Positions 3,710-38,645 of a stretch of 39,605 bases of DNA are shown piece after piece. The stretch lies in the IMG/VR virus record IMGVR_UViG_3300025121_000009; one strand, written 5' to 3'. A program made the position numbers and the translations under genes. Each line of letters starts with the position of its first letter. Position 1 is the first letter of the stretch. Below the pieces are notes generated by a model. The model worked only from the letters and a program-made list of their open reading frames with translations. It made no database searches and was not told the DNA's origin. Source of the stretch: a virus.

Positions 3710-3725
3710 TGATTAAATTAAACTA
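3710..3725 (-). promoter_or_regulatory. Conserved box TAGTTTAATTTAATCA, 25 nt (box start to ATG) upstream of gene 3332..3700
   Basis: 16-nt exact match with 4914-4929. Confidence 0.4.
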
Positions 3726-4904
3726 ACCTTTAACAACAGCTAGCGGCTTTAACTCTACCAGTATCTTTGTTAAATCTTTCTGGTTTTCCATAACAACATC
3801 TATATCCTTATATGCTTGAGGAGCTTCTCCAAAGTCTAGATTACCTTTTCTATCCTTTCCCCACCTACCGTATACAACCCCCTCCATAGATTTGTCTGCC
3901 TCTTCTAGAGTTATGTTTCTACTTGCTTCCATTCTACCCATTTTCCTACCCGCTCCGTGTGAACAACTCATAAAGGATTGAACATTTCCCAGTCCCTCTG
4001 TTATATAGGACTTAGTACCCATAGACCCTGGAATAATTCCAACCTCTCCTAGCCTTGCACTTGTAGCACCTTTTCTATGAACCCATACATTCCTACCCAT
4101 GTGGTTTTCCAGTCTTGCGTAGTTGTGTGCTATGTTAATTATCTCTTCTGCTTTATAATCGCCAAGAGTATCAGCTACAACACCCATGACCCTCTCCATC
4201 ATCAGTTTCCTATTCGCAAATGCAAAGTCCACACAATACTGCATTTCCTGTATATAATCTTGACCCTCTTTAGTGTCGGTAGGTAGATATGCTAAGTCTT
4301 GTTCTACAACATTTGGTATATACCACTTCTTAGCTAATTCAATAGCTTTTGCATTGTAGTAATCACACACTTGCTTACCAAGATTTCTACTACCAGAATG
4401 TATCATTATCCACAATTCACCCTCGCTACTTCTTTGTAGTTCTATAAAGTGATTACCACCACCAAGCGTTCCTATTTGTGTAAGGGCGTTGTCATACTCC
4501 TGAGCTACAACGACACCATTAGCACTTTTGCTATTACTAAATGGCATTAGGCTCTCCTCTTGTTTCTTCTGGTGGTGTGCAAACCCAACTGGTACAACCT
4601 TTCTTATTCCACCCAATGTTTCTTTTAATTGTTCCTGCGTAATATCCTCTGTTTTTATATGAGTATTAACTACACACATACCACAACCTATATCTACGCC
4701 CACCATATTAGGGCTAATAACATCAGCAAGAGCTACAACCCCACCAATAGGCATTCCGTACCCTTGATGACTATCTGGCATTACTGCAACCCACTTGTAT
4801 ACAAAAGGTAGGTTAGCAATATTTTTAATCTGCTCCATAGCACCATCCTCGATATCTTCTAACCATAGTTTTACCTGTATCTTTTCAGTATTTATTTCTT
4901 TCAT
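3723..4904 (-). CDS. rtcB: RtcB-family 3'-phosphate/5'-hydroxyl RNA ligase
   Basis: 393 aa carrying RtcB hallmark blocks: DSHQGYGMPIGGV, GGGNHFIELQ, IHSGSRNLG, AHNY, HRKGAT, IIPGSMG and SCSHGAGR. Confidence 0.9.
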   Translation of the reverse strand: MKEINTEKIQVKLWLEDIEDGAMEQIKNIANLPFVYKWVAVMPDSHQGYGMPIGGVVALADVISPNMVGVDIGCGMCVVNTHIKTEDITQEQLKETLGGIRKVVPVGFAHHQKKQEESLMPFSNSKSANGVVVAQEYDNALTQIGTLGGGNHFIELQRSSEGELWIMIHSGSRNLGKQVCDYYNAKAIELAKKWYIPNVVEQDLAYLPTDTKEGQDYIQEMQYCVDFAFANRKLMMERVMGVVADTLGDYKAEEIINIAHNYARLENHMGRNVWVHRKGATSARLGEVGIIPGSMGTKSYITEGLGNVQSFMSCSHGAGRKMGRMEASRNITLEEADKSMEGVVYGRWGKDRKGNLDFGEAPQAYKDIDVVMENQKDLTKILVELKPLAVVKG

Positions 4905-15990: not shown

Positions 15991-16029
15991 TTGTTAATCG
16001 TACCAAATTAAGCACCCTCGTATAGTATA

Positions 16030-16038
16030 ATTATAACA
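16030..16038 (-). promoter_or_regulatory. Extended -10 promoter TGTTATAAT
   Basis: The minus strand reads TGTTATAATTATACTATACGAGGG. Confidence 0.5.
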
Positions 16039-16040
16039 TA

Positions 16041-17099
16041 TCATAACAAGTTCATTTCCTCGCTTGCTGGATTATAAAAGATAGTATAATCTACCGAAGT
16101 TGTACCAGTAGGCTCTGGTGTGTAATCATAAAGGTCTGGTATGCTAGGTGAAACAACTCTTGTAAGCTCTAAAACAAGTTGTGTGGCTGTTGAGTAGTAT
16201 TTTATGTAGTGGTAATTGTGCATTTGGTCGTCCCCAAACACCCAAAGATTAATCTTAGTGTCTTCTAGGTTGTTTACATATGTGTTTATTAGGTCTGGGT
16301 CTGCGTAAAGCTCCCAGTAATCTGTCCAGCTAGCACCAATACCAGGTTGTGTAATCGCACTTGATACATGGGTTTGTTTACAAGAATACCAAACAAAGTT
16401 GTCATCCATAACATCTTCGTCAATATAATATTGTGAACCTATCAACCAGAAACCAGAGTTTACAACAGAAGTATTAAACGCTTCGTTTGCCATATGATAA
16501 AACCACATATCAGTTTCATAATCTACAAAAGGTGCAAACATAGGTGCATATCCTAAGTTATGATTAACAGTAACCGTTTGTACATCTACACCACCACCAC
16601 TTCCTGGGTCATAAGCTGGTGCGTCAATGGTTAGTGTACCCGTACTATGAACCTTAAAAGTATCATACCCACTATGTAACTTAAAATCGTAATCTGTTCC
16701 CGTGTCAACACCAAGTAATAACTTTGGCTTGCCATCCATATTCTTTTTGTAAACACCAGGTGTTAAATTGTCAATTAAAACATGGGTTATATTTGAAACA
16801 TCACTTTCTGTTGTATAGAGTATATAGTCAATAGTGTGTGTTCCAAGTGTTGTAATAATATTCGTGTTGCTGAGCTTAGTATTTGCAAACCACCCATACC
16901 TACCCGAAATAGGCTCTTTCATGGTTAAAAACTTCGGTGTGTAAGTAAGCCCATGTGCCACTGTTGAGTCCCCCGTTGCTCGTACTGTTTTAGCTATTTT
17001 ATTAAGGTTATACTCACTACTAAACGACAAATCTTTAAGGGCTGCTGTCCTTATATCAAAACGGGGTCTTGCTACTTTTACATTAGGAACTCCAGGCAT
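16041..17099 (-). CDS. Tail or baseplate-associated protein (352 aa from the second ATG; the track start is 17114)
   Basis: From M6 the N-terminus, MPGVPNVKVARPRFDIRTAALKDL, parallels the N-terminus of the upstream gene, MVGDNVPKILAARDDYDVRTAEVRYL. Confidence 0.5.
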   Translation of the reverse strand: MPGVPNVKVARPRFDIRTAALKDLSFSSEYNLNKIAKTVRATGDSTVAHGLTYTPKFLTMKEPISGRYGWFANTKLSNTNIITTLGTHTIDYILYTTESDVSNITHVLIDNLTPGVYKKNMDGKPKLLLGVDTGTDYDFKLHSGYDTFKVHSTGTLTIDAPAYDPGSGGGVDVQTVTVNHNLGYAPMFAPFVDYETDMWFYHMANEAFNTSVVNSGFWLIGSQYYIDEDVMDDNFVWYSCKQTHVSSAITQPGIGASWTDYWELYADPDLINTYVNNLEDTKINLWVFGDDQMHNYHYIKYYSTATQLVLELTRVVSPSIPDLYDYTPEPTGTTSVDYTIFYNPASEEMNLL

Positions 17100-17529: not shown

Positions 17530-17745
17530 TTAAAAGCCAATAAAAATTGATAATCGGTTCTCGTTATCGTACAAACTTATATCTCCCTGATTTTTAATAA
17601 TAAACGACCCACTAAGCCCACCTGTAGATAGGGCTGTTGACGATAGTGTCTGCTGTGTAGACATCACACCAGAGCCAACCTCTAAAGGTTTAGTTAAATA
17701 AGCCCCTAATTGTTGTCTAATTTGTTCTGCTGTAATTACTAACAT
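17530..17745 (-). CDS. Hypothetical virion protein (71 aa)
   Basis: TAATG overlap with the upstream gene. Confidence 0.45.
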   Translation of the reverse strand: MLVITAEQIRQQLGAYLTKPLEVGSGVMSTQQTLSSTALSTGGLSGSFIIKNQGDISLYDNENRLSIFIGF

Positions 17746-19220
17746 TAATGTATTTCCCTTGCCTCGGTATCATAAATTAGGTTGAGTCCATAAATAGAAA
17801 GACCTGCCCCACTTGAGCTATGAGAAAGTTTTAATTCTATAAACTTACCAGCTGCTTTACTTGGCATTATAAGTCTTTGTACTTTAATCTCGTCTGTTCC
17901 TGATAGGTTCACATTACTTGTTGTTCCCTCCACATTACTCCAGTTACCCGTTCCACCTATTCTATACTGGGCTGTTAAAAACTCACTAGCACCAGTTGGC
18001 TTGTAAACAACCTGTACTTCGTAAGCATTCTTAACATCATCAACATTCTCTGCTGCTCCAAACAACTTTGGTGTTTGATAAACTGAACCCTGTGCAGATC
18101 CATTTAGTGCATACCCCAAATCTGTTTGCCATACCTGTTGTCCGTCTGGATTAGTTGTGTATACTTCATAAACACCACTTGCCTTGTTTCTTGTCCAATA
18201 CTTAAAAGGTCTGTTAATAAGCACATCCCATGAGTTAATTAGTATGTCATACCTTAAAACAACATCTGTATAAGCAGTCCCATTAAATGTAACATCTCCA
18301 ATATATAAGCAATACCTACCCCTTGAGTCTAACCCACCCGTAACATTATCTGCTGTTGTAACTACACTTAACCAGTCTTGAATTGGTCTACTAATAAGTG
18401 TTGCTTCTGTACCACCTGCATAGATATATACTCCACCTCGGTTATACCAAAGTAGTCTACTTTCACTTACCTGTATTGTTTCTTTGTTAGTTGTTCCACC
18501 ATTAGTATTTAAAACCCTTAGTGCATATTCATCCCATGCTGCTACCTTGTCTTGTGTAAACACAAAAAGAGACCCACTATACTCTTTAAGACCTATTATA
18601 GCCTCTCCCATATCGTCAAAATAGTTATTCTCTGGGAAGCTGTCTTTACTTACTTCACTAAATATAACCCTTGATGGGTATGTTTTTGTACTTGTTTTAA
18701 CATTTCCTAGGTATAATCTCCCCTTATAAACCTCTAAATGCTTGGCATAAACATTGGCTATACTTGATATACTAGCCCCTGTTGTAAACTTTATAGTACC
18801 CTCTAAACCCTGTGTTACATACATTCTTTCTACAAAGGTCTCTGCTGCTGTTCCTACACCAGTTCCAGTGTTGATAAAAGACACCCCAAACTCAACTGGG
18901 CTAGAGCCTGTTCCAAAACCACTCCCTATTGAAGCAAAACTTGAACCATTGTACTTATAAAGATTAGCCCCGTATACTTGATATAACTCATCAGTGCCAC
19001 TTTCCTTGTTCCATGCAAACACACCCCTATTACTACCACTACCTACACCAGTTCCTATCTGTGCAAAGCCCAAAGACTTGCCAAGTATTCCTGGTTTACT
19101 AATATCTACATTGTAAAGAAAAGGGGACTCATTTACCTTGAGTAGTAAAGGCGAGGTGAATGTCTGATACCCACCACTAAAGTCAATGTACTTCTGGATA
19201 ACTCGTTTACTTCTTGCCAT
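17745..19220 (-). CDS. Large tail structural protein (491 aa)
   Basis: Beta-rich sequence. Assigned from size and position. No specific motif. Confidence 0.4.
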   Translation of the reverse strand: MARSKRVIQKYIDFSGGYQTFTSPLLLKVNESPFLYNVDISKPGILGKSLGFAQIGTGVGSGSNRGVFAWNKESGTDELYQVYGANLYKYNGSSFASIGSGFGTGSSPVEFGVSFINTGTGVGTAAETFVERMYVTQGLEGTIKFTTGASISSIANVYAKHLEVYKGRLYLGNVKTSTKTYPSRVIFSEVSKDSFPENNYFDDMGEAIIGLKEYSGSLFVFTQDKVAAWDEYALRVLNTNGGTTNKETIQVSESRLLWYNRGGVYIYAGGTEATLISRPIQDWLSVVTTADNVTGGLDSRGRYCLYIGDVTFNGTAYTDVVLRYDILINSWDVLINRPFKYWTRNKASGVYEVYTTNPDGQQVWQTDLGYALNGSAQGSVYQTPKLFGAAENVDDVKNAYEVQVVYKPTGASEFLTAQYRIGGTGNWSNVEGTTSNVNLSGTDEIKVQRLIMPSKAAGKFIELKLSHSSSGAGLSIYGLNLIYDTEAREIH

Positions 19221-19257
19221 GTTTGTAATGTTAAACTAAAACCCTCGTGTATATATA

Positions 19258-19266
19258 ATTATACCA
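19258..19266 (-). promoter_or_regulatory. Extended -10 promoter TGGTATAAT
   Basis: The minus strand reads ATGGTATAATTATATATACACGAGGG and overlaps the stop region of the GT gene. Confidence 0.5.
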
Positions 19267-20482
19267 TTACAAGCGACCAACCCTTAGTGTTAGGCACTGT
19301 TGCCGACAGGTACACTTGATACAACTCTCTTATCCAGTCCTCAAGCTCCCACATCATGTTATCCATTAAGTATCTTTCTGCGTGTTTCCTAATCTTTTTA
19401 GGGTCTAGTGTGTCTACTAACTTAGCACATTGAACAAAATCATTAAGTGTATGGCACCTAAAACCTGTTACACCTTGTACTACTGTGTCTAAGAACGCAC
19501 CAAAGTCCGTTGTGAGTACAGGAGTACCACAAAGTTGGCTCTCTACATTAGTACCTCCAAAAGGCTCTAAATACCATGTTGGAATAAAACAAGCCTTAGC
19601 ATTAGCCATTAGCTCTGTTCTTTTATCTGGATCAACATACCCTACATACTCAACAAGTGGGTTACTTAAATCAATCTTCTCGTTATCGTCCATTTGTCCT
19701 GCAATTATTATCTTTGTATTAAGAGCTTTAGCTGTTTCTATGGCAGTTTGAACCCCTTTTCTATGAATAAGTCGCCCTATATAAAAGAAGTAATCCTGTT
19801 TTTTACTCTTAAAGGTAAAATCTTTTCCATCAAAGTAATTAGGAAATACTCGGTCATAATAAGCACCATTGGGTGTTTCTCCTGTTTGGGCGTTCTCTCG
19901 CCCATATGTGAAGTTCATTATATAGCTACTCTCAAAACCCCTGTAAACAGTTCTACCACTACTAAGCTGTGGTACACTTCCTCTATATCCAATACCAGGC
20001 TCCATTGTTAAAAATAGGTCTACTGCGTCAGCTATGGGCTTATCAAACCACCCTTGCATTATCATTAAAAAGTCGTCAGGTTGCTTGCGTTTGTTTATCT
20101 CTTTTATACTATTAGCTATAAACTTCTGGGTACACACAGTTGGTGCTTTATTTATATCGTGTCTAAACATACCCTCCCTCCAGTTATACCCTATGTCAAA
20201 CCTATTATCTCCGTCTCCCCATGCGTCTCTAATGTCCTGTAAGGAATGAGTTACAATGTACTCTGTACAAGGCACATCACCACCCTCTGCTCCGTATACA
20301 TAAACCTCATGACCTAAGTCCATAAGCATTTGAGCCATATGGTATTTTTTCATTGTGAAAGCACAGCCCATATACTTTCTTGACACTGGTAAATGACTTA
20401 AACCTACAATATGTACTCTAAACTTCTTTTGTCTTGGTATCATAGTGGTGTCCAAGAAAGACACCGATGAAAGCTTGTCCAT
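19259..20482 (-). CDS. GT-B fold glycosyltransferase (GT4/GT1-like)
   Basis: The C-terminal block EPFGGTNVESQLCGTPVLTTDFGAFLDTV matches the EX7E-type retaining GT signature. Confidence 0.7.
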   Translation of the reverse strand: MDKLSSVSFLDTTMIPRQKKFRVHIVGLSHLPVSRKYMGCAFTMKKYHMAQMLMDLGHEVYVYGAEGGDVPCTEYIVTHSLQDIRDAWGDGDNRFDIGYNWREGMFRHDINKAPTVCTQKFIANSIKEINKRKQPDDFLMIMQGWFDKPIADAVDLFLTMEPGIGYRGSVPQLSSGRTVYRGFESSYIMNFTYGRENAQTGETPNGAYYDRVFPNYFDGKDFTFKSKKQDYFFYIGRLIHRKGVQTAIETAKALNTKIIIAGQMDDNEKIDLSNPLVEYVGYVDPDKRTELMANAKACFIPTWYLEPFGGTNVESQLCGTPVLTTDFGAFLDTVVQGVTGFRCHTLNDFVQCAKLVDTLDPKKIRKHAERYLMDNMMWELEDWIRELYQVYLSATVPNTKGWSLVMV

Positions 20483-21038
20483 AAAGCCCTTGTGATGATA
20501 AATTAACTACTTGTCCACTTCCACCTAGCCACTTCTCAAGTTGTTCTTTAGTAAACGAGTGTGGGTGTCCATCATTTGTTCCTGTGTTGATCCATTCAAA
20601 TATTCTTACTTCTTTGGAAATTGCTAGTGCGTTTTTAATAATTCTTTTGGGATTTTGGGTGTGTTGGAGGCAATTATATATAAGTACAATGTCATATCTG
20701 GCGTTTGTTGGTATGTCTTCACCTTTAATTTTAAGGTACTTAATACCACTTGCTTTGTATCTCTCGCCCACCCATGCAGGATAATCACAAGGGTCTACAA
20801 CTGTTCCTTTAATATTTTCACATTTAAGAAGTATTGAAGAGGGTCCTCCCCCTATATCAAGCACACTTTCCCCATTCATGGGTATTCTGTACTGTGTATA
20901 CGCATTTGGAACTATTTTGAGTCCTAAGTACGGGGCTAGGCCTATTTGTTTAACATCCTCCCAGACAGTGTTAGCACAAGTGTTCCACCACTCTTTTTCC
21001 CATTGTTGTGCTTCTTGCCATTTAATCCTCGTGTTCAT
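20418..21038 (-). CDS. Class I SAM-dependent methyltransferase
   Basis: Motif I, VLDIGGGPSS, with a Rossmann-like alternation downstream. Confidence 0.65.
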   Translation of the reverse strand: MNTRIKWQEAQQWEKEWWNTCANTVWEDVKQIGLAPYLGLKIVPNAYTQYRIPMNGESVLDIGGGPSSILLKCENIKGTVVDPCDYPAWVGERYKASGIKYLKIKGEDIPTNARYDIVLIYNCLQHTQNPKRIIKNALAISKEVRIFEWINTGTNDGHPHSFTKEQLEKWLGGSGQVVNLSSQGLYGQAFIGVFLGHHYDTKTKEV

Positions 21039-21043
21039 AGTAT

Positions 21044-21052
21044 ATTATACCA
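21044..21052 (-). promoter_or_regulatory. Extended -10 promoter TGGTATAAT only 5 nt from the ATG (predicts a leaderless mRNA)
   Basis: The minus strand reads GTGGTATAATATACTATGAAC. Confidence 0.5.
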
Positions 21053-21060
21053 CTACAATC

Positions 21061-21180
21061 TTATTTTAATAACTGCCACATCATAAAGGTAGTCACCTGA
21101 TATTTAAACAACCAGATTAAAACCAGAACTGTTGAAACTCCAAGTAAATACCATACTACCGACTTAATATTCTGTTTCAT
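21061..21180 (-). CDS. Small membrane protein (39 aa, below the track cutoff)
   Basis: Hand translation: MKQNIKSVVWYLLGVSTVLVLIWLFKYQVTTFMMWQLLK. AAGGAAAAT precedes the ATG. Confidence 0.45.
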   Translation of the reverse strand: MKQNIKSVVWYLLGVSTVLVLIWLFKYQVTTFMMWQLLK

Positions 21181-21238: not shown

Positions 21239-22837
21239 TTACGCATTTGATATTATCATTTGAACTACGTTTGTTGCTGCACCAGCCGATATTGTAAAAC
21301 TCCTTGTAGGACTACTCCAAGCCCCCCAAGTGTTAGAACCACCTGGGTCAGTTGCTCTAACTCTCCAATAGTATGTATCTCCTGCTGGTAGCGCACTCCC
21401 TGCTGGTATTGTATAGGTTATCTCGTTTCCACTAGGAAAAGGATTAGGAGAACCTGTACCAGACCAGTTAGCATCGTCATCGGTAGAGGAGAGGGTGTCT
21501 ATTAAAGGTATTGCGGTATCGCTGTTGTCAAAATAGTAAGTATCAACCCCACTATCGTGAGTAACCTCGACTTCAAATCTGTAGAATCTTACAATGTAAG
21601 TTGAAGAGTATAAGTACCCCTTAACTTCAAGATGACTAACTTTTTCCCAATTCCAACCACCCGTAGGAACAGCTAGTGTTGTATATGCACTCCAGTCTGT
21701 TCCTCCAGTGTCGTTTGTAAAACCAAGTTCCTCCACAAGCCCATCGGTATAATAATATGCGCGTGCCTCCTGCGCCTCGTTAAGTTCATACGAGAACATT
21801 CTGGCACGAACCTGTGTTATTGAGTCACCAGAGGTAGGAGCATTAGTCCCCTCTCCCTTAATATAATATTGGGAAGTGCTACCATTCTGCGTAGTCGTTT
21901 GTGCATAAGTTGATGTTGAACCATCAAAAGCCTGAGCATCATCTGTCCAAACACCATCTGGGTCATAGGGCGCACTCTGACCATTGAAAGTATTCACCGT
22001 ATCCACCTGTACCTCATATTCAACTTCACTAGCATTAGCATCTGTTCCTGTAAACTGGAAAGCTGGAGTTGTATCTGTAATAGTAGCTGCGTCTACAACA
22101 TTCGTTCCCAGAGTAACAGTAGGAGAGAACTCTGGTATTAAAGCAAAACCAACTACACCCCAGGGACACGATGTAATAGCATCCGTTCCACCGTTAATTG
22201 TTCCTGCACTAGCCATTACAGCAGTAACAAGTGCTATTGTTCCATCAGTACCAGCACTGTCTCCATAAGCTGCAACTGGGTATGTCCAATCCCCACCAGT
22301 TTCACCAGTCATAGCAGTTAGCTCAGTAGCTTGTGGATCGTCATTTGTTGCTATAAAGTTGAGAGCCAACCTACCAAGACCTAGTGTAGTAACACCTACA
22401 TCAGCAACAGAGTTGGAAGTAGCAGCTGCAGAAGCCACACCACCAGCAGTACCATTTTCTATAACTAGTGCTAAAGTACCACCCTTACTTACACCACTAA
22501 ACTCATACATTCTTGCAAAGACATCTTCACTTGTACTATTTCCACCAGTAAAGGTGGGTGCAGTTGTAGAAAGAGAACGCCCAATCCAAAGGTATTGTCT
22601 GGCTTCGTCTGAACCACCAACCGAATACTCCCCAATAGCAGTCCATGTGTTATCTGTACCTGCTAAGTTTTCAATATTAGTTGCACTGGTAAAAGTTACA
22701 GCACCATCAGTCGTTCCGTCTTGAACAATTTGTAAAATGATTATATTACCAGCAGCACTTGGAGCAGCACCAGTAATGGTAAACGCACCCCCTGCGTCTG
22801 TTGCACCTGTACTAGCTGTAATATACGAAATAGCCAT
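21239..22837 (-). CDS. Fibre or receptor-binding-like structural protein with a C-terminal Fn3/Ig-like segment
   Basis: Thr/Gly/Ala-rich and beta-rich. The C-terminal YYWRVRATDPGGSNTWGAWSSPTRSFTI is Fn3-like. It lies directly after the collagen-like fibre gene. Confidence 0.45.
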   Translation of the reverse strand: MAISYITASTGATDAGGAFTITGAAPSAAGNIIILQIVQDGTTDGAVTFTSATNIENLAGTDNTWTAIGEYSVGGSDEARQYLWIGRSLSTTAPTFTGGNSTSEDVFARMYEFSGVSKGGTLALVIENGTAGGVASAAATSNSVADVGVTTLGLGRLALNFIATNDDPQATELTAMTGETGGDWTYPVAAYGDSAGTDGTIALVTAVMASAGTINGGTDAITSCPWGVVGFALIPEFSPTVTLGTNVVDAATITDTTPAFQFTGTDANASEVEYEVQVDTVNTFNGQSAPYDPDGVWTDDAQAFDGSTSTYAQTTTQNGSTSQYYIKGEGTNAPTSGDSITQVRARMFSYELNEAQEARAYYYTDGLVEELGFTNDTGGTDWSAYTTLAVPTGGWNWEKVSHLEVKGYLYSSTYIVRFYRFEVEVTHDSGVDTYYFDNSDTAIPLIDTLSSTDDDANWSGTGSPNPFPSGNEITYTIPAGSALPAGDTYYWRVRATDPGGSNTWGAWSSPTRSFTISAGAATNVVQMIISNA

Positions 22838-22866: not shown

Positions 22867-26304
<3,438 letters not shown>

Positions 26305-26306
26305 TG

Positions 26307-26573
26307 TTAAATGTCGTTTATTTTAGTCCAAATGTTTGCTATATCAGCAATATCAGTCCATATTTCCACATCCTCGCCATGGCTTATTACTATATAGTCA
26401 AGTCTTGCCTCTGTCATTATGTCGTCTCTATCACCCTCTGTACAAAGCCTTATAAGCCCTCCATAAGCCTTCCACTGTATTACATCATCTGCCACCTCAC
26501 TATAACTAGTGGTAGCATCTGTAATCTTAGTAAAGCTTGTAGGGATGTCTGCTATTTTTGTGTAAGTAGTCAT
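26307..26573 (-). CDS. Hypothetical virion protein (88 aa)
   Basis: ATGA-type overlap upstream. The stop lies 2 nt before the fibre ATG. Confidence 0.45.
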
Positions 26574-27232
26574 TATAACCCTCCATACTCATCTACAAGT
26601 GCGATTGTTCCACCACTATCTATGTTTCTTTCTACAATATTGTTCTCCATTTCGTCTAAACCACCTCTAAATTGAATCATAAAGTCGTCACCTTCTTGCT
26701 TCAATCCTAGTGTATATTTAGCCTTCCCTGCTGCGTATAAAGGCAGTAAACTATCGTAATCAAGTGGAAGTCCTGTAACATCACTATCCCCACTCATATC
26801 GGCAGGGTTTTCTACATAAAGCATGTACAAACCATCCGTTACAGCAACAAGAGGTGTTGGTCTAAGCTCAAACATATTCCCTATTATTGTGTACTTTGGG
26901 TTGCTTTGTGAAAATTGGTCTGTACTATCTCTTATTTCTGAAACATCTATTTGATTAACCTTAACCCTATCGGTTGCATTAACATACCCTATCTCTAGTC
27001 TTGCAAACTTTCTAAAATCTGTTGGAAGTGAATACAATGATTGGTTGGCGACTGTATCAGCCTTAGCAATCCTTAAAAAGTAATTCTGTCCTAATGTAAG
27101 GAGTCTATTAAGTACTAAGTCTCTTGCTGTGTTTAAGTCTCTTTTAACCTGAGTCGTTGTAACAGTGCTATTAGCACTTATTGTCATATTGAGTAAATCC
27201 CCAACCTCTGTTTGCATTACCGAGAATGTCAT
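26573..27232 (-). CDS. Candidate head-tail connector or adaptor protein
   Basis: 219 aa, placed between the capsid block and the fibre genes. Assigned by synteny only. Confidence 0.35.
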   Translation of the reverse strand: MTFSVMQTEVGDLLNMTISANSTVTTTQVKRDLNTARDLVLNRLLTLGQNYFLRIAKADTVANQSLYSLPTDFRKFARLEIGYVNATDRVKVNQIDVSEIRDSTDQFSQSNPKYTIIGNMFELRPTPLVAVTDGLYMLYVENPADMSGDSDVTGLPLDYDSLLPLYAAGKAKYTLGLKQEGDDFMIQFRGGLDEMENNIVERNIDSGGTIALVDEYGGL

Positions 27233-27270
27233 ATTATTACATTGTAAATTAATACATCCTCGTATACTTA

Positions 27271-27279
27271 ATTATACCA
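27271..27279 (-). promoter_or_regulatory. Extended -10 promoter TGGTATAAT
   Basis: The minus strand reads GTGGTATAATTAAGTATACGAGGAT. Confidence 0.5.
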
Positions 27280-27282
27280 CGA

Positions 27283-28461
27283 CTACAAAAGTTCCCCTTG
27301 AACATCTTTAGGTAAAATACTCTTATAAAGCTTGACTAAATGCCCCGCTTCAATATCAATATTCCTCTCTTTTTTAACCCACTCTTGCCCTGTTTTTACC
27401 TTTTCTTGCCAGTTTTTACCTGCCTTAATATCCTCTATCATAGCTCTCAACTTCACTTCAAACTCACCATTATCCTTAAAAGGATAGCTATTGTCCTCTG
27501 TAACGACCCTTGAGTAAGGCAACATATTCTTAACCACACAAGGAACACCCTGTGCTGTAAACTCTACCCACTTTATCTCACTCTTGTACTCGTTAAAAGG
27601 CTTACTTTCAAGTGGAATAATAGCACCATCAAGTCCCATGGTCTTAATCCTGTATGTATAGGCCCTAAATGGATACCAAGGATACCTTGTAACCCTATCT
27701 TCTATCTCTTTGAACTGATTTCTGTAATAACTTCCTAAAATATGTAGTGTAACCTCTGGATAATCCTTTAAAACCCTATTTAAAGGCTCTTTTATCTCTT
27801 CCCAGTCCCCCAAATGGCTCACACCACCCTGCCAACCTAGTCTAATCTCACCTTTTTTCTTATCTTTTGGTAAAAAAGTCCCCTCTGGGTACAAATCATA
27901 GTTAATAGCATTGTGAACAATACCAGTTTTAACCTCTTTACTACCAAACTGTGCATAGAAGTCTACAAGGTTCTCTACAGGTCCTGTAATGAGCTGAGAC
28001 GCTGCTAAAATATACAGTAGATTCATTTGTCCACTTAAATTAGTATACCTGTTAAACCCGTCTGTTAATCCTGTTACCCATACTGGTTTAAGATTGCCAT
28101 TAAATAAAGCCCAAGCGTCTTCTGTACCAAACTCTTTATAATGCTCACTCGTTGGCAATACCTCCATTGTATTATCATCATGGTCAAACACCATAGGCTT
28201 GTTAGGGTCTACCTCTTCTTTAATCAATTTGTAATACTGATAATCTCCTAGCCTACCAACAACAACATCAGCACTTTTTATCATTTCAATTTGCTTGTTA
28301 GCTTCCTCATGTCCGTCCATTAAGTAGCTTTTAACATCACTTCTCAACTGAAAGGCATCATCAAATTGCCTTATCCTATACCAACCACACCCACCGTCAT
28401 CAGCTGGTAAAAATAATACTTGTAAAGGTCTTTTCCCTTTCGTCTTGGATTTATGACTCAT
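27283..28461 (-). CDS. Putative glycosyltransferase embedded in the head module (392 aa from the SD-led ATG; the track start is 28509)
   Basis: The ATG at 28461 is preceded by TTAAGCGAGGATACT, the same RBS string as the methyltransferase at 36716. The N-terminus VLFLPADDGGCGWYRIRQ resembles GT-B N-terminal nucleotide-sugar folds. Weak call. Confidence 0.45.
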   Translation of the reverse strand: MSHKSKTKGKRPLQVLFLPADDGGCGWYRIRQFDDAFQLRSDVKSYLMDGHEEANKQIEMIKSADVVVGRLGDYQYYKLIKEEVDPNKPMVFDHDDNTMEVLPTSEHYKEFGTEDAWALFNGNLKPVWVTGLTDGFNRYTNLSGQMNLLYILAASQLITGPVENLVDFYAQFGSKEVKTGIVHNAINYDLYPEGTFLPKDKKKGEIRLGWQGGVSHLGDWEEIKEPLNRVLKDYPEVTLHILGSYYRNQFKEIEDRVTRYPWYPFRAYTYRIKTMGLDGAIIPLESKPFNEYKSEIKWVEFTAQGVPCVVKNMLPYSRVVTEDNSYPFKDNGEFEVKLRAMIEDIKAGKNWQEKVKTGQEWVKKERNIDIEAGHLVKLYKSILPKDVQGELL

Positions 28462-28478
28462 AGTATCCTCGCTTAAAA

Positions 28479-28880
28479 TTATATTGTTCTTGGGTCTACT
28501 GTTAAACACAGTTGCCCCAACTCATCTTCTACAAACGCCTCTTTAAACTTCTCAGGGTTAGTCAACACATCATCACCCCACATCTGCCTAGCCACATACA
28601 ACATTTCATTTGGTACTTTAGCAATAAGTCTCCAGTCTCTCTCGTTATTAAACCCATCAGTATTTTGTTTAAGCCTTGCGTTATCAGCAAACACTCCATT
28701 AAAACCACTCTTAACACCCTTATTCATCTTAGCTTTACGAGCAGCTTCAATTTTCTCTCCTATTGCTGTTGCTAGTATTCTTTCTTGTTCTTTGTTTTTG
28801 GGTGCCAAGTCTTGTAACATCTTCATTACTTCACTGGTACTCTTTTCTAGTTTATTACCCTCTGGGTCTATTAATTCCAT
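28479..28880 (-). CDS. Hypothetical protein (133 aa)
   Basis: ORF directly after the promoter at 28886-28894. No motif. Confidence 0.5.
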   Translation of the reverse strand: MELIDPEGNKLEKSTSEVMKMLQDLAPKNKEQERILATAIGEKIEAARKAKMNKGVKSGFNGVFADNARLKQNTDGFNNERDWRLIAKVPNEMLYVARQMWGDDVLTNPEKFKEAFVEDELGQLCLTVDPRTI

Positions 28881-28901: not shown

Positions 28902-28922
28902 AAAAAAGGGGCCTAAGCCCCC
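28902..28922 (-). terminator. Intrinsic terminator after the major capsid gene
   Basis: The minus strand reads GGGGC-TTAG-GCCCC followed by TTTTTT. Confidence 0.7.
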
Positions 28923-34484: not shown

Positions 34485-34739
34485 CTATTTTAACCTGTCT
34501 AATTCTTTTATTATTTTTGTTCTCTTTTTCTTTAATACCTCTAGCTTATCCTCAGTTGTTTGTGATCTGTTTCTTTTAGCTTGTAGACTATTGATTATAT
34601 TATGTCTTTCAAGGTTAATTTGGGCCAGTTGTTTTTTAAGCCTATCTCTTTTACCAAATATTCTATCCCAGTTTTCTTCATAGTTTTTAACATCTTGCTT
34701 GGTTCTGGTTGTCGTTGGTTTACTTATATCACTACTCAT
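34485..34739 (-). CDS. Basic coiled-coil protein (84 aa from the ATG; the track start at 34754 is TTG)
   Basis: ATGA overlap with the upstream stop at 34736-34739. Confidence 0.45.
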   Translation of the reverse strand: MSSDISKPTTTRTKQDVKNYEENWDRIFGKRDRLKKQLAQINLERHNIINSLQAKRNRSQTTEDKLEVLKKKRTKIIKELDRLK

Positions 34740-35539
34740 AGTTGTGTAGCCCAAATGGCAATATCAATTAAATCTAAACTAGGTCTCTGTATATGCTCGT
34801 CCATGTCAATTTTCTTTTGCCTTGGTAGTTTATCTCCTATTTTTAAGTATGTGTTGTTCATTGGCATTCTGTTTGGCTCTCCACTTGCCTTAAAAGCCTC
34901 GTGCTCGTCTACTACATACACTGGTATTCCCATAAGCCTCGCAAAACTCTCAAAGGTAGACGGATTAGGAGTAAACACCATGTCGTAACTAGGCAACTTC
35001 TCTTTAATGTCTGCTAAAATAGTATCACTCTCTACATTGTTAAACCACTTACCCTTGTCTGTTGTAATATCTCCTGACTTGTCAATAAGTTTTACAGTCC
35101 AGTCTAGCTCTGGGTATGCCTTAACTAACTGGTCAAAGAGTACCTGATTATAAATAGACATATCTTTCACCCAGTGCAATGCTACAAACAACGCCTTGTT
35201 GCCTGTGTGCTTTGTCTTTTTAATGTCGTCATAAATTGGATTACCTGTTATTAGTATTTTACTCATTGGCACACCCTTTCTTACTAAAGACATAAAACTT
35301 CCCTGCCCTAATGCTAAATACCCATCAGCCATAGGCTCCCTGTTGTTTAATTCATAATCATACAAAGCACCAAAGCCATGTTCAAACACAACTACTTTCT
35401 TTCCTAGCCCTTTAAGTGTCCTCACATGTTGAGCAAACGGAAAGTCTGCCCACATAAACACCACCTCTGCATCTACTAACTCACTATTACTTGGCTCCCA
35501 TTGCCAAAAATTATGATGGTTGTATACAAGATATTTCAT
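34736..35539 (-). CDS. Hypothetical protein in the sugar cluster (possible glycosyltransferase)
   Basis: 267 aa from the ATG at 35539, which forms an ATGA overlap with the upstream stop. The alternating beta/alpha pattern is Rossmann-like. Assigned from context only. Confidence 0.3.
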   Translation of the reverse strand: MKYLVYNHHNFWQWEPSNSELVDAEVVFMWADFPFAQHVRTLKGLGKKVVVFEHGFGALYDYELNNREPMADGYLALGQGSFMSLVRKGVPMSKILITGNPIYDDIKKTKHTGNKALFVALHWVKDMSIYNQVLFDQLVKAYPELDWTVKLIDKSGDITTDKGKWFNNVESDTILADIKEKLPSYDMVFTPNPSTFESFARLMGIPVYVVDEHEAFKASGEPNRMPMNNTYLKIGDKLPRQKKIDMDEHIQRPSLDLIDIAIWATQL

Positions 35540-36147
35540 ATTAGTTTCCATTTCTCTGGAATTAAATTAGCTATTGATCGCCTATGCTCTAGGTCTCCCT
35601 CGTTGTAAACTGCACCTATTTTCTTATTCCTTTCCTTAACCAAATCAACATCAATGTCTCTTAGATGTAGCATAATTAAATCTGCATCAAGCAGGGTAGT
35701 ACCCTTTACACGATGATTACTTAAATACACTTGAGGCTTTGTTATTATCACACACTTGTCGTACATTTCGTCTCTACTCCAATGAGTCCTTTGCGATAGT
35801 ATAGGTTTACTTAAATCTATTGGTTTATCCCCTACCATTTGTAGTACATTATAACCAACACACCTTACTGCACTCTCCTTAACCCTATCCAAATACTCTC
35901 CTAAATCCTTATACTTCTCTGGATTGGCTACCACTATCTCGTCTATATCAGCAAACAAGATTAAGTCGTACTCCTTAAACAACTCTTCTTGGAGAGAATT
36001 AAGCAAAGAATAAGTGGCACCCCAGTCTCTTCTTAAAATATCCCCTATCTTAACTATTTTAATGTCTAAATACTTTGAGTAATAGTCCTTCCAAATACTG
36101 GTCATGTCTGAGTGGTCGTGTTCAAATGTTACTGCTATTCTTTTCAT
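35536..36147 (-). CDS. Putative GT-A-like glycosyltransferase
   Basis: The DxD-like motif LFADIDEIVV follows a short N-terminal beta-alpha region. ATGA overlap with the methyltransferase gene. Confidence 0.4.
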   Translation of the reverse strand: MKRIAVTFEHDHSDMTSIWKDYYSKYLDIKIVKIGDILRRDWGATYSLLNSLQEELFKEYDLILFADIDEIVVANPEKYKDLGEYLDRVKESAVRCVGYNVLQMVGDKPIDLSKPILSQRTHWSRDEMYDKCVIITKPQVYLSNHRVKGTTLLDADLIMLHLRDIDVDLVKERNKKIGAVYNEGDLEHRRSIANLIPEKWKLI

Positions 36148-36716
36148 TTTTGAATAATACCTAGTCCGTTTGAGTTAAGTCGCTCACTAAATGTCCATTC
36201 CGGATGTTGCTCTTGTAACTCTTTGAAATACTGCTTAACACCAAACCCTCTCTCTGTTACCTGAGTATCATGAAGTATAATACGCCCACCCTTTGGTACG
36301 AACTTACTCCAGTTCTCAAAGTCTTCTTTAATGTCCTCATAAAAATGTCTTCCATCAATATGAAGTAAGTCTATAGGTTTATTCCAACCTTTAAGTGCCT
36401 CGTTAAATGTCTTTTTGATTACTTTTACATTAGGGTACTGGTTGAGAGTTTCCATTGCTATGTCTTCTATCTCATTACCAAACTTCCCACTGTGTTCGTC
36501 TCCTATAAAGTGATCCACACCATACAGCTTTGTTGACGACCCGTTATCTAAACAACTCTCTGCCATTGTAGCAAGCGAGTGTCCTAAATATACCCCAAGT
36601 TCAACGATTACCTTTGGCTTCCAAACGGGTATCTGGTTGTAAATGTAAAGTATATGCCCTTCCCATGCAGACTTATATTTTCCTAAGTGTTCGTACCATT
36701 TAAACTCTTCAAACAT
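36144..36716 (-). CDS. CmcI/TylF-like class I SAM-dependent (sugar O-)methyltransferase
   Basis: Motifs VELGVYLGHSLATMAE, LLHIDGRH and GGRIILHD. The ATG at 36716 is preceded by TTAAGCGAGGATAGTG. Confidence 0.6.
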   Translation of the reverse strand: MFEEFKWYEHLGKYKSAWEGHILYIYNQIPVWKPKVIVELGVYLGHSLATMAESCLDNGSSTKLYGVDHFIGDEHSGKFGNEIEDIAMETLNQYPNVKVIKKTFNEALKGWNKPIDLLHIDGRHFYEDIKEDFENWSKFVPKGGRIILHDTQVTERGFGVKQYFKELQEQHPEWTFSERLNSNGLGIIQK

Positions 36717-36745
36717 CACTATCCTCGCTTAATTTATCTATATAC

Positions 36746-36754
36746 ATTATACCA
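36746..36754 (-). promoter_or_regulatory. Extended -10 promoter TGGTATAAT
   Basis: The minus strand reads AATGGTATAATGTATATAG. Confidence 0.5.
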
Positions 36755-36756
36755 TT

Positions 36757-37113
36757 TCACATGACAGGGAACACATAATCAGCCCTTAAATCGTCTAGTG
36801 CTTCCTTGAGTTCCTTGTACCACTCGTGGTTAATTTCACCCTTGTTTAGGATACGCTCTGAAACTACAATACACTCTGATAGTTCACAAATGGGTAATTT
36901 TTCCCCTAACCAATAACTGTTGATTAACTCTGGCCAGTTGATTTTCCTACATCTGTAGATACAAGCCCTGTGTGGGTCAAATGTTAAATCGTCTGGGTAA
37001 ATATCGTGCCACATCAAGTACGCTATTAGCCCTATACTAGATGTAACAAAGTCGGCTTCTCCTTTATTCATGGCAGTAATAAAGTAAATTATATTCAATA
37101 TACCCCCACTCAA
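36757..37113 (-). CDS. Hypothetical protein (start uncertain: TTG at 37113 or ATG at 37068)
   Basis: ORF between the rmlB-like gene and the methyltransferase gene. No motif. Confidence 0.4.
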   Translation of the reverse strand: MSGGILNIIYFITAMNKGEADFVTSSIGLIAYLMWHDIYPDDLTFDPHRACIYRCRKINWPELINSYWLGEKLPICELSECIVVSERILNKGEINHEWYKELKEALDDLRADYVFPVM

Positions 37114-37122
37114 GTTACGATG

Positions 37123-38124
37123 TCAATTACCTAACCAGTGTGGATGGTTCATTGTCCATTTAACGGTCTTTTCTAAACTCTCCTCAAACCTAAACGGTGC
37201 TTCCCAACCCAAATCCTTTAGCTTTTTACCACTCATCGCATACCTACGGTCGTGTCCTGGGCGATTCAAATGGAAATCTTGATATACAAAATCTCTACCC
37301 TCTTTAACATCTTCAACACCCATTGCCTTGGCTATTAACTTAAACATTTGTAAATTGTCCATTTCAATATCCCCCACAATATGCACCTTATCATTTACTA
37401 TACTATGCTGTAATAAAAACAAAGTAGCGTCTGCTGCGTTTCTGGCATGTAACCAATGCCTCTTACCTACATTACCCGGTGTTCCATGTATTGTCATTGG
37501 TTGGTTGTTATAAAGAAACTGCATTGACTTTGGTATGAGCTTCTCAGGGTCTTGTCTTTCTCCAAATATATTCATGGTGTTGGTTATTAGGTACGGTAAT
37601 CCATAAGTAACACCATACGCCTGTACTATCATTTCCCCTGCTGCTTTTCCTGCACTATATGGATTACTTGGATGTAGCTTATCTTCCTCTGTAAAATCAT
37701 AATTCTCTGGTGCTGGTCCGTAAACTTCATCCGTTGAAAAGTACAAAAACTTCTTTAAATTAGGTTGCATGGTTCTTGCATACTCAAGCATTTGAACTGT
37801 ACTCTGGGCGTTATTACAAAACACTTCAACTGGTTCTTTAATACTTGTGTCCACATGACTACATGCTGCTAAGTGTGCTATGTAATCAACCTCTCCTATG
37901 TGTTTATGAACTGTTGCCAAACTATCGTTTAGATCGTGTCTAACTATTACAGTTCTCTCTCTCCACTCTGGGTGGTCAAGTAAGGTCTCCTCTATCCTAT
38001 TTAAGTCTCCTGCCCTATTCATTTTAACCAAACCAATAGCTGTCCAGTCTGTTGTCTTCATAACATGCTCCCACAAATGAGACCCTACAAACCCTGACAT
38101 ACCCGAAATTAGTAATTTAACCAT
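37123..38124 (-). CDS. rmlB: dTDP-glucose 4,6-dehydratase-like SDR (RmlB/RfbB type)
   Basis: GMSGFVGSHL (GxxGxxG), STDEVYG and YSAGKAAGE (YxxxK). Confidence 0.8.
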   Translation of the reverse strand: MVKLLISGMSGFVGSHLWEHVMKTTDWTAIGLVKMNRAGDLNRIEETLLDHPEWRERTVIVRHDLNDSLATVHKHIGEVDYIAHLAACSHVDTSIKEPVEVFCNNAQSTVQMLEYARTMQPNLKKFLYFSTDEVYGPAPENYDFTEEDKLHPSNPYSAGKAAGEMIVQAYGVTYGLPYLITNTMNIFGERQDPEKLIPKSMQFLYNNQPMTIHGTPGNVGKRHWLHARNAADATLFLLQHSIVNDKVHIVGDIEMDNLQMFKLIAKAMGVEDVKEGRDFVYQDFHLNRPGHDRRYAMSGKKLKDLGWEAPFRFEESLEKTVKWTMNHPHWLGN

Positions 38125-38479
38125 TATAATCTTGTAATAATTTAAGTTGCTCTTGCATATCCTCTAAGCTCCATTTTTTAATTTCATTTCTAACCGACAT
38201 AATATAAGCTAGGTCTTCCCACCTGTTCTCTTCTAAAAAGAAATGAAACCACTCTGGCGACTGGTGTGCCGATTCTTTTCTGAAAACATGACACCCACTA
38301 CATAAACAAACACCATTTCTTAAATCCCACCTCAGCCTAAAGTTTCTCCTGCCCTCAATATGATGTGGATTTAAATGTTCGATGCTTCCGCACACTTCAC
38401 ACTTCCCTTTTGAAAGTATTGCCCTACTCCACGCCTTGTCTAGTTTATCTCCTAGTGTTGTTTTTGTAATCTTCCGCAC
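38117..38479 (-). CDS. NinG/Rap-like or HNH-type nuclease
   Basis: Motif CEVCGS..HLNPHHIEGRR..RNGVCLCSGCH. I prefer the GTG at 38479 because AAGGGGGAG lies 5 nt upstream. The track start is 38500. Confidence 0.55.
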   Translation of the reverse strand: MRKITKTTLGDKLDKAWSRAILSKGKCEVCGSIEHLNPHHIEGRRNFRLRWDLRNGVCLCSGCHVFRKESAHQSPEWFHFFLEENRWEDLAYIMSVRNEIKKWSLEDMQEQLKLLQDYNG

Positions 38480-38645
38480 TCTTTCTCCCCCTTTTAGCAT
38501 AAGTTAAAACTTGCTTTTCTTGGCACTCGTCTAAGTACATCACACCTTTAATTATTCTAGGCTTAATTCCTCTTGCTCGTATTCTTTTGTAAATTATTAC
38601 AGGATACGACTTATTATCTTTTGCTATCTGATAGACTGTCTTCAT
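38445..38645 (-). CDS. Excisionase/HTH_17-like DNA-binding protein (66 aa from the internal ATG)
   Basis: MKTVYQIAKDNKSYPVIIYKRIRARGIKPRIIKGVMYLDE. ATGA overlap with the upstream stop at 38642. Confidence 0.4.
   Translation of the reverse strand: MKTVYQIAKDNKSYPVIIYKRIRARGIKPRIIKGVMYLDECQEKQVLTYAKRGRKSAEDYKNNTRR

Follow-up and report, generated by a model that had tools for sequence, protein, structure and literature searches.

What do a methyltransferase and a glycosyltransferase do in the midst of the virion genes of a small phage? The question is raised by IMG/VR virus record IMGVR_UViG_3300025121_000009, a stretch of 39,605 nucleotides (the whole of which is called the window here) in which a methyltransferase (MT) gene runs into a glycosyltransferase (GT) gene downstream of a collagen-like fiber gene. 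We found that the MT and the GT are tightly coupled, as shown by adjacency, overlap, and gene fusions, and that the GT is statistically linked to collagen-like genes across phages. We interpret the pair as one functional cassette for a methylated virion glycan, with the upstream collagen-like fiber as the most probable protein to carry it, and give this reading an even chance of being correct. The features on which the argument turns are the following.

20418-21038, minus strand: class I S-adenosylmethionine (SAM)-dependent methyltransferase of 206 residues, phrog_3603 family
19259-20482, minus strand: retaining GT-B glycosyltransferase, GT4-like, of 407 residues, phrog_3408 family
20418-20482, minus strand: 65-nt overlap of the MT and GT genes, with the GT start at ATG 20482
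22867-26304, minus strand: fiber of 1145 residues, with two collagen-like regions (residues 49-224 and 658-1036) around a right-handed beta-helix; proposed acceptor

The original prediction for this locus, made from the DNA alone, had argued for virion modification and had proposed comparing related contigs to see whether the pair travels with collagen-like fibers. IMG/VR contains no fewer than 412 MT and 573 GT loci. We collected 195 loci, which formed 108 clusters at 80% identity, and scored a locus as linked when a gene with 30 or more G-X-Y triplets, taken as collagen-like, lay no more than 7 kb away; as a control, 120 random IMG/VR loci were drawn by an arbitrary 14-mer, and 64 of them entered the final comparison. 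The pair does travel with such genes: a collagen-like gene was found in 36 of the 52 lineages carrying both MT and GT, compared with 4 of the 64 random loci (odds ratio 34, p = 3e-13, a p-value that is optimistic because clusters at 80% identity are not phylogenetically independent). Since a collagen-like gene was also found at 10 of 22 loci with the GT only, while only 1 of 15 loci with the MT only had one, the collagen link follows the GT. The median distance to the nearest collagen run was 1.9 kb; of 54 cases, 44 had the run upstream and 51 had it on the same strand, a consensus layout that the window shares.

The order of adaptor, collagen fiber, variable fiber, MT, GT, and a 491-residue protein is kept in about 13 related podovirus contigs, and among the genes compared in these relatives the GT is usually the best conserved (71-88% identity, versus 32-85% for the capsid protein). 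The cassette has the same layout in SU10-like podoviruses and in contigs 75-118 kb long. Cultured phages have it as well: gp017 and gp018 of cyanophage ACG-2014f and the GT of S-CAM7, both grown on Synechococcus WH7803, are true homologues of the window pair (45-46% identity for the MT, 36-37% for the GT). The ACG-2014f pair stands in the same order as in the window, downstream of a collagen triple-helix protein in the tail-fiber region (collagen gp015, gp016, MT gp017, GT gp018, 2-oxoglutarate (2OG) oxygenase, tail fiber). The cyanophages are T4-like myoviruses of 215-228 kb, whereas the window is a 39.6-kb podovirus; they have a 2OG-Fe(II) oxygenase beside the GT, which the window does not, and S-CAM7 is without the MT. 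The cyanophage MT is annotated as "hypothetical."

The MT-then-GT cassette was found in at least 62 dereplicated phage lineages. MT is followed by GT on one strand in 56 of the 62 lineages with both, the gap is at most 100 nt in 44 of the 62, and most relatives also have an MT/GT overlap of a few codons. In the window, the overlap of 65 nt given by the original prediction matches the GT start at ATG 20482 and would shrink to 26 nt if the GT began at ATG 20443. We favor the longer overlap because the extended GT N terminus (MDxxxxVSFLDxTM) is conserved in relatives that have no MT overlap, a homing-endonuclease gene lying upstream in place of the MT. An exhaustive representative search also returned many single-chain MT/GT fusions in both orders (P0141, P0143, and P0146; P0140 and P0166). 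Larger fusions join the MT and GT to GT32, GT2, Methyltransf_24, or FkbM domains; the architectures include MT+GT4, MT+GT32+GT4, and MT+GT2+GT32+MT24+GT4, with P0172 an example of the last (MT+GT2+GT32+Methyltransf_24+GT4). P0172 and P0141 lie on short contigs with no useful gene context. Because the fusion partners are glycan-building enzymes, the MT would most simply be taken to methylate a sugar rather than a protein.

Two side observations concern the junction of the enzymes. The linker between the MT and GT domains of P0143 (600 residues) is a short collagen-like stretch (GTTGAVGATGPLGTKG). In some close relatives a free-standing homing-endonuclease-like gene encoding 179-187 residues, which resembles the HNH/NUMOD type by sequence, lies exactly between MT and GT (L013:3567-4106, L014:9405-9968, and also L015). 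The window has no such interposed gene, and its MT C terminus differs. Gene conversion driven by homing might be part of the reason why the GT is better conserved than the capsid gene.

Both enzyme assignments of the original prediction were confirmed. The MT carries the motif VLDIGGGPSS at residues 59-68, scores above the Pfam cutoffs for Methyltransf_23 (30.4 bits versus 27) and Methyltransf_11 (23.4 versus 21.2), and falls into phrog_3603 ("unknown function," 1.6e-47). Its AlphaFold2 model (mean predicted local distance difference test (pLDDT) 89.6) has a seven-strand Rossmann-like sheet, and Foldseek matched it with probability 1.0 to many SAM-MT structures, the best being small-molecule and sugar MTs at template modeling (TM) scores of 0.5-0.6. 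The predicted class I fold is thus generic. In an alignment of 23 homologues, the SAM motif LDIGGGP (D61, G63-G65) and D82 are invariant, as are N122/Q125/H126, E148/W149, and H158, and all are present in the window. The best viral fold match is a 664-residue fusion protein annotated as "Glycosyl transferase, family 1." The top PDB matches by sequence, designed "Cake" repeat proteins, were discarded as artefacts that sum weak repeat matches. Cellular homologues of the MT (34-51% identity), which may be the source of the phage gene, are lone genes in Saccharibacteria, in bacteria resembling the candidate phyla radiation, and in Bacillota metagenome-assembled genomes (L026:10001-10618; L045:9980-10603; L048:10010-10597). 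The idea that they belong to glycan clusters was rejected, as their neighbors are translation and housekeeping genes (seryl- or Trp/Tyr-tRNA synthetase, ribosomal protein S7, pseudouridine synthase, and a hibernation factor).

The GT contains the motif LEPFGGTNVESQLCGTPV, matches Pfam Glycos_transf_1 with 67.3 bits against a cutoff of 26.4 (1.6e-18), and falls into phrog_3408 ("glycosyltransferase," 1.7e-78). Its AlphaFold2 model (pLDDT 90.5) has the two-domain GT-B fold, and its best Foldseek match is the alpha-1,2-glucosyltransferase tll1591 (7fg9, TM 0.73/0.83), followed by BGluT, ManT, MshA, BshA, and PimA; nearly all of the top 50 matches are GT-B enzymes, mostly GT4. The EX7E motif (E293/E301 in the numbering of a 394-residue protein) and the phosphate-binding R224/K229 are invariant in 30 homologues. 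Like the window GT, tll1591, BGluT, and ManT have the retaining GT-B fold and its donor-binding motifs, while their acceptors are sugars or a pterin, and a highly conserved insert in the acceptor domain (residues ~76-102) is a feature of the window GT family. At 14-20% identity, the use of UDP-glucose by the nearest solved structures is no more than a lead to the donor. The original prediction would have been undermined by a loss of catalytic residues; since the SAM-binding, E-x7-E, and phosphate-binding residues are invariant and present, and both models are confident, the two enzymes appear intact.

The 1145-residue fiber matches Pfam Collagen (1.4e-57), Beta_helix (2.5e-15), and NosD; about 2.2 kb separate the end of its last collagen run from the MT downstream. 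Of its 170 G-X-Y triplets, 95 have Thr at Y, and Pro is nearly absent. Thr at Y is general in prokaryotic collagens (PMC8968730), and it was rejected as a mark of cassette-linked collagens, in which it amounts to 52% versus 40% in the controls (only 5 loci). As a separate observation, a heptad G-x-K-G-D-T-G occurs about 10 times in the fiber, always with Lys at Y; in the collagens of animals and mimivirus, hydroxylysine is glycosylated in this sequence context, but no hydroxylase was found in the window.

Are the enzymes expressed together with the virion genes? The original prediction had given the pair its own promoter and an apparently leaderless MT start. A promoter-like motif is indeed present.

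21044-21052, minus strand: TGGTATAAT, an extended -10 promoter-like motif, 5 nt before the MT ATG

It is not special to the pair, since TGNTATAAT occurs 12 times in the window (3.7 expected) and 10 of the copies stand on the coding strand just upstream of genes, which makes it a genome-wide class. All ten lie within about 12.1-36.8 kb (12125-36754), the structural, lysis, and glycan part, and none in the replication/recombination module at 1-12 kb. This distribution suggests a module-specific promoter class, common to the pair and the virion genes, and would fit their co-expression, presumably at a late stage. A leaderless MT mRNA is plausible: of 11 podovirus relatives, 8 have retained a -10 element (TATAAT) at a distance of 5-7 nt from the start codon of the MT, and in 7 of these it is preceded, one base upstream, by TG. 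A scan of the window for standard sigma-70 promoters and terminators returned fewer sites than in shuffled sequences, the informative signal being the extended -10. In ACG-2014f, TGGTATAAT is likewise found upstream of MT gp017, 24 nt from its start (L001:8396-8432). Sigma-70-type motifs in T4-like cyanophages usually mark early genes, so late timing cannot be assumed there.

Two further signals were noted. A composite TATAAT-N(4-16)-CGAGG has 6 coding-strand copies where 0.15 are expected, and may be a phage-specific promoter or leader element:

16016-16035, 16058-16076, 19243-19263, 21027-21049, 27258-27276, and 28467-28483, minus strand: composite motif

In three of these cases ACGAGG is followed after 24-26 nt by a start codon, and at the MT the ACGAGG lies inside codons 3-4. 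A GC-rich hairpin with a T-run (GGGGC-TTAG-GCCCC-TTTTTT; 28902-28922, minus strand) lies directly 3' of the major capsid gene and immediately precedes a TGGTATAAT copy situated 5 nt before the next ATG (28880), a leaderless-type spacing like that of the MT.

We hypothesize that the cassette acts on the fiber as follows. The GT4 enzyme would take a nucleotide-hexose (its nearest solved relatives use UDP-glucose) and move the sugar to the fiber, or to a sugar placed there by the other glycosyltransferase of the phage. The Thr hydroxyls of the G-X-Thr repeats are obvious candidate acceptors, a primer sugar being the alternative, and the MT would O-methylate the added sugar. Further sugars could be supplied or decorated by a second set of glycan genes, which is a large investment for a 39.6-kb phage:

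37123-38124, minus strand: NDP-sugar 4,6-dehydratase (Pfam GDP_Man_Dehyd/Epimerase; phrog_540), best match dTDP-glucose 4,6-dehydratase
36144-36719, minus strand: second methyltransferase, of the sugar O-methyltransferase type (Pfam Methyltransf_24, 8.7e-23)
27283-28509, minus strand: second glycosyltransferase-like gene (phrog_7162 "glycosyltransferase," 2.1e-18), between the capsid genes and the adaptor

The dehydratase matches NCBIfam TIGR01181 at 2.4e-69, below the curated cutoff, and the second methyltransferase lies just above the Pfam cutoff for RMNT_CmcI and just below that for TylF. The second GT-like gene is kept in L014, L015, L018, and L021; its product has no Pfam or NCBIfam match. 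Positions 34736-38500 also encode a weakly GT92-like protein of 203 residues and several unannotated small ORFs. Of the earlier claim that the pair modifies the virion, the enzyme identities, the collagen linkage, and the promoter class thus held; the modification itself, with its acceptor and donor sugar, we infer.

Several points, besides the optimistic p-value, weigh against fiber glycosylation. About 30% of the lineages with both MT and GT have no collagen-like gene nearby, and fiber modules are hot spots for accessory genes. The pair adjoins the terminase in L008 and L038, and only the MT was seen there in L007 and L035, while in L033 the cassette stands among DNA-metabolism genes, beside a dCMP deaminase and replication genes. 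Position alone is weak evidence because all window genes are on one strand. Thr at Y, being common in prokaryotic collagens, is not a specific signal; the lone cellular homologues among translation genes (38-51% identity for those of Saccharibacteria and CPR-like genomes) imply that the MT family is not necessarily tied to glycans; and the GT4 enzymes of known structure that come nearest to the GT modify sugars or small molecules rather than proteins, with no specific resemblance of the GT to known protein O-glycosyltransferases in the fold comparison.

Could the target be the host envelope instead? The cassette and the other sugar genes might modify lipopolysaccharide, teichoic acid, capsule, or S-layer glycan during infection, and could thereby block superinfection or keep progeny virions off cell debris. 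GT4 members are typical enzymes of cell-envelope glycans, the homologues are listed in several databases as "glycosyltransferase involved in cell wall biosynthesis," a paper on a cyanomyovirus reads cyanophage GT and epimerase genes in this way (PMC12801897), and receptor-related genes could plausibly adjoin receptor-binding fibers. However, remodeling would leave unexplained why the linkage is strand-consistent and to collagen-like genes, not to fibers generally. In the window ORFs that were compared with Pfam and PHROGs we saw no integrase, lysogeny gene, DNA polymerase, or base-hydroxylating enzyme, nor any flippase, polymerase, or lipid-carrier priming transferase; the MT and GT match no membrane-protein family, and both are predicted to have compact, soluble folds. 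We therefore consider envelope remodeling unlikely, though the strongest of the alternatives.

A glycan on a different virion protein, such as the capsid, the adaptor/nozzle, or the 491-residue protein, with the collagen neighbor incidental, has a smaller chance still. Throughout the podovirus clade the GT is followed by the 491-residue virion gene, the lineages lacking a nearby collagen-like gene would be accommodated, and the phage virion glycans described in work cited in PMC12619734 are on capsid and tail-tube subunits. Against this, GenBank phages, the pair-carrying cyanomyoviruses among them, contain no homologue of the 491-residue protein, and within the window's clade this protein diverges much faster than the GT, whereas the collagen association holds over unrelated virion architectures.

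A soluble product, in the form of a methylated oligosaccharide or a glycosylated small molecule, is improbable. The mycobacterial methylmannose polysaccharide is made by a GT4 enzyme and methyltransferases, with ManT working alongside methyltransferases, and BGluT forms the pterin glucosides of cyanobacteria; together with tll1591, an alpha-glucan/sucrose glucosyltransferase, these are the closest solved structures to the GT, and the MT resembles small-molecule MTs. A fold likeness at 13-20% identity nevertheless says little about the acceptor, and a soluble product explains neither the location in the structural module nor the collagen linkage.

Least probable of all is DNA hypermodification, in which the GT would glycosylate a hydroxylated or hydroxymethylated base and the MT modify it further: GT-B enzymes do glycosylate phage DNA, the phage DNA glycosyltransferase HY126 (9iqz) stands at rank 39 of the GT fold search (PMC13326640), and the L033 cassette has the DNA-metabolism neighbors mentioned above, but known pathways need a hydroxylated or hydroxymethylated pyrimidine (PMC13326640), neither a thymidylate-synthase-like hydroxylase or hydroxymethylase nor a DNA polymerase was found among the ORFs scanned, the HY126 likeness is remote (13% identity, TM 0.59), and the usual context of the cassette is a fiber module.

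Glycosylation of the collagen-like fiber, the reading we prefer, has partial precedents in known systems. Mycobacteriophage GTs decorate the phages' own virion proteins, according to Freeman et al. (2023) as cited in PMC12619734 and PMC12801897. Like those GTs, the window GT is phage-encoded, and its gene lies beside structural genes; the mycobacteriophage glycans are on the C termini of capsid and tail-tube subunits, and no collagen-like target is described. BclA of the Bacillus anthracis/cereus exosporium is a glycosylated collagen-like filament of G-X-Thr repeats (PMC8968730). Its long G-X-Y repeats with Thr at Y are matched by the window fiber (95 of 170 triplets), although BclA is a bacterial spore surface protein and the window protein a virion fiber, and the two are likened by repeat type, not by GT homology. 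The BclA glycan contains rhamnose and a methylated 6-deoxy sugar, and the genes for sugar synthesis lie beside bclA, a setting paralleled by the dehydratase and methyltransferases of the window.

A viral enzyme that glycosylates a collagen-like protein of the same virus is known from mimivirus, the collagen lysyl hydroxylase/glucosyltransferase L230 (PMC8968730). In that case the host is a eukaryote, and a 2OG oxygenase domain fused to the enzyme makes the hydroxylysine to which the sugar is attached. A tblastn search with the cyanophage 2OG oxygenases found none in the window or in the non-cyanophage loci examined, and the window ORFs scanned gave no Pfam 2OG match. An L230-like, hydroxylase-coupled mechanism was therefore rejected, a 2OG oxygenase beside the GT being found only in ACG-2014f and S-CAM7. 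Chlorovirus PBCV-1 A064R and multidomain enzymes of giant viruses combine GT and sugar-MT domains in one polypeptide for a virion glycan, and giant-virus GT/MT fusion proteins were also among our viral fold matches. The A064R type is analogous to the MT+GT4 fusions described here and differs in belonging to eukaryotic viruses, in acting on capsid N-glycans, and in its GT folds.

The remaining genes place the cassette within the genome. In transcription order, the window encodes the dTDP-glucose-4,6-dehydratase-like gene, the Methyltransf_24 MT, terminase, portal, major capsid protein, the second GT-like gene, and an SU10-type adaptor. The 1145-residue fiber, a 532-residue protein, a 39-residue ORF, MT, GT, and the 491-residue virion protein follow, and downstream of these come further virion proteins, an M23 peptidase, and then the replication/recombination module (exonuclease, DnaD-like loader, Rad52, and RtcB). 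With related IMG/VR contigs measuring 37-39 kb, the 39.6 kb of the window look like a nearly complete podovirus genome, and the minus strand carries every sizeable ORF.

26573-27232, minus strand: SU10-type head-tail adaptor (Pfam SU10_adaptor, 8.9e-14), which anchors the module as podovirus tail genes
21239-22837, minus strand: hypervariable protein of 532 residues, putative second fiber or receptor-binding protein
21061-21180, minus strand: hydrophobic ORF of 39 residues, between the 532-residue gene and the MT
17745-19220, minus strand: virion structural protein of 491 residues (phrog_3287 "virion structural protein," 4.9e-15; synteny)

The gene order given by the original prediction is correct, except that the pair is not strictly adjacent to the second fiber because the 39-residue ORF intervenes; its labels of second fiber and tail protein rest on synteny and the one PHROG match of the 491-residue protein. 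The 532-residue protein has a homologue only in the closest relative (L003), though the flanking genes are conserved, and gave no PDB match and a single weak Ig-like Pfam match below the cutoff. The 39-residue ORF is 100% identical in L003/L013 and matches no family in Pfam or PHROGs. The 491-residue gene, found 3' of the GT in L003, L006, and L014-L021, encodes a protein with no Pfam family above the cutoff and no significant match to a solved structure. Megablast of the window against GenBank phages returned no close relatives, a portal-protein search of the same phages gave no match, and the capsid protein had only ~35% matches (podoviruses from a spring-water virome and a Pelagibacter phage). 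An RtcB-type RNA ligase is encoded at positions 3723-4904 (phrog_1075, 3.5e-125) of this small podovirus, and may counter host defenses that cleave tRNA.

Both enzymes belong to well-known superfamilies, phage virion glycosylation is already known, and uncharacterized homologues have already been deposited from cultured cyanophages; in our literature searches we came across no account of an MT-GT4 cassette tied to collagen-like fibers. Extended to all carriers, from 39-kb podoviruses to marine T4-like cyanophages, the idea becomes that of a widespread, hitherto unrecognized phage system which O-glycosylates and methyl-caps Thr-rich collagen-like stalks, with the GT4 as a dedicated collagen glycosyltransferase. 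We hold this broader proposal more tentatively than the one for the window and rate it a little below an even chance. The modification would be required to stabilize proline-poor triple helices, or to tune or shield host recognition.

Should the proposal be wrong, the tight linkage of the GT to collagen-like genes would still need explaining. If it is right, post-translational glycosylation of receptor-binding fibers by the phage's own enzymes would occur in many environmental phages, abundant marine cyanophages among them, with effects on host range, fiber stability, and recognition, and the large "unknown function" family phrog_3603 would gain a function. Phage virion glycosylation would then extend beyond the capsids and tail tubes of mycobacteriophages, and bacterial viruses would have a counterpart of the collagen glycosylation of animals, mimivirus, and Bacillus spores, the first case in bacteriophages.

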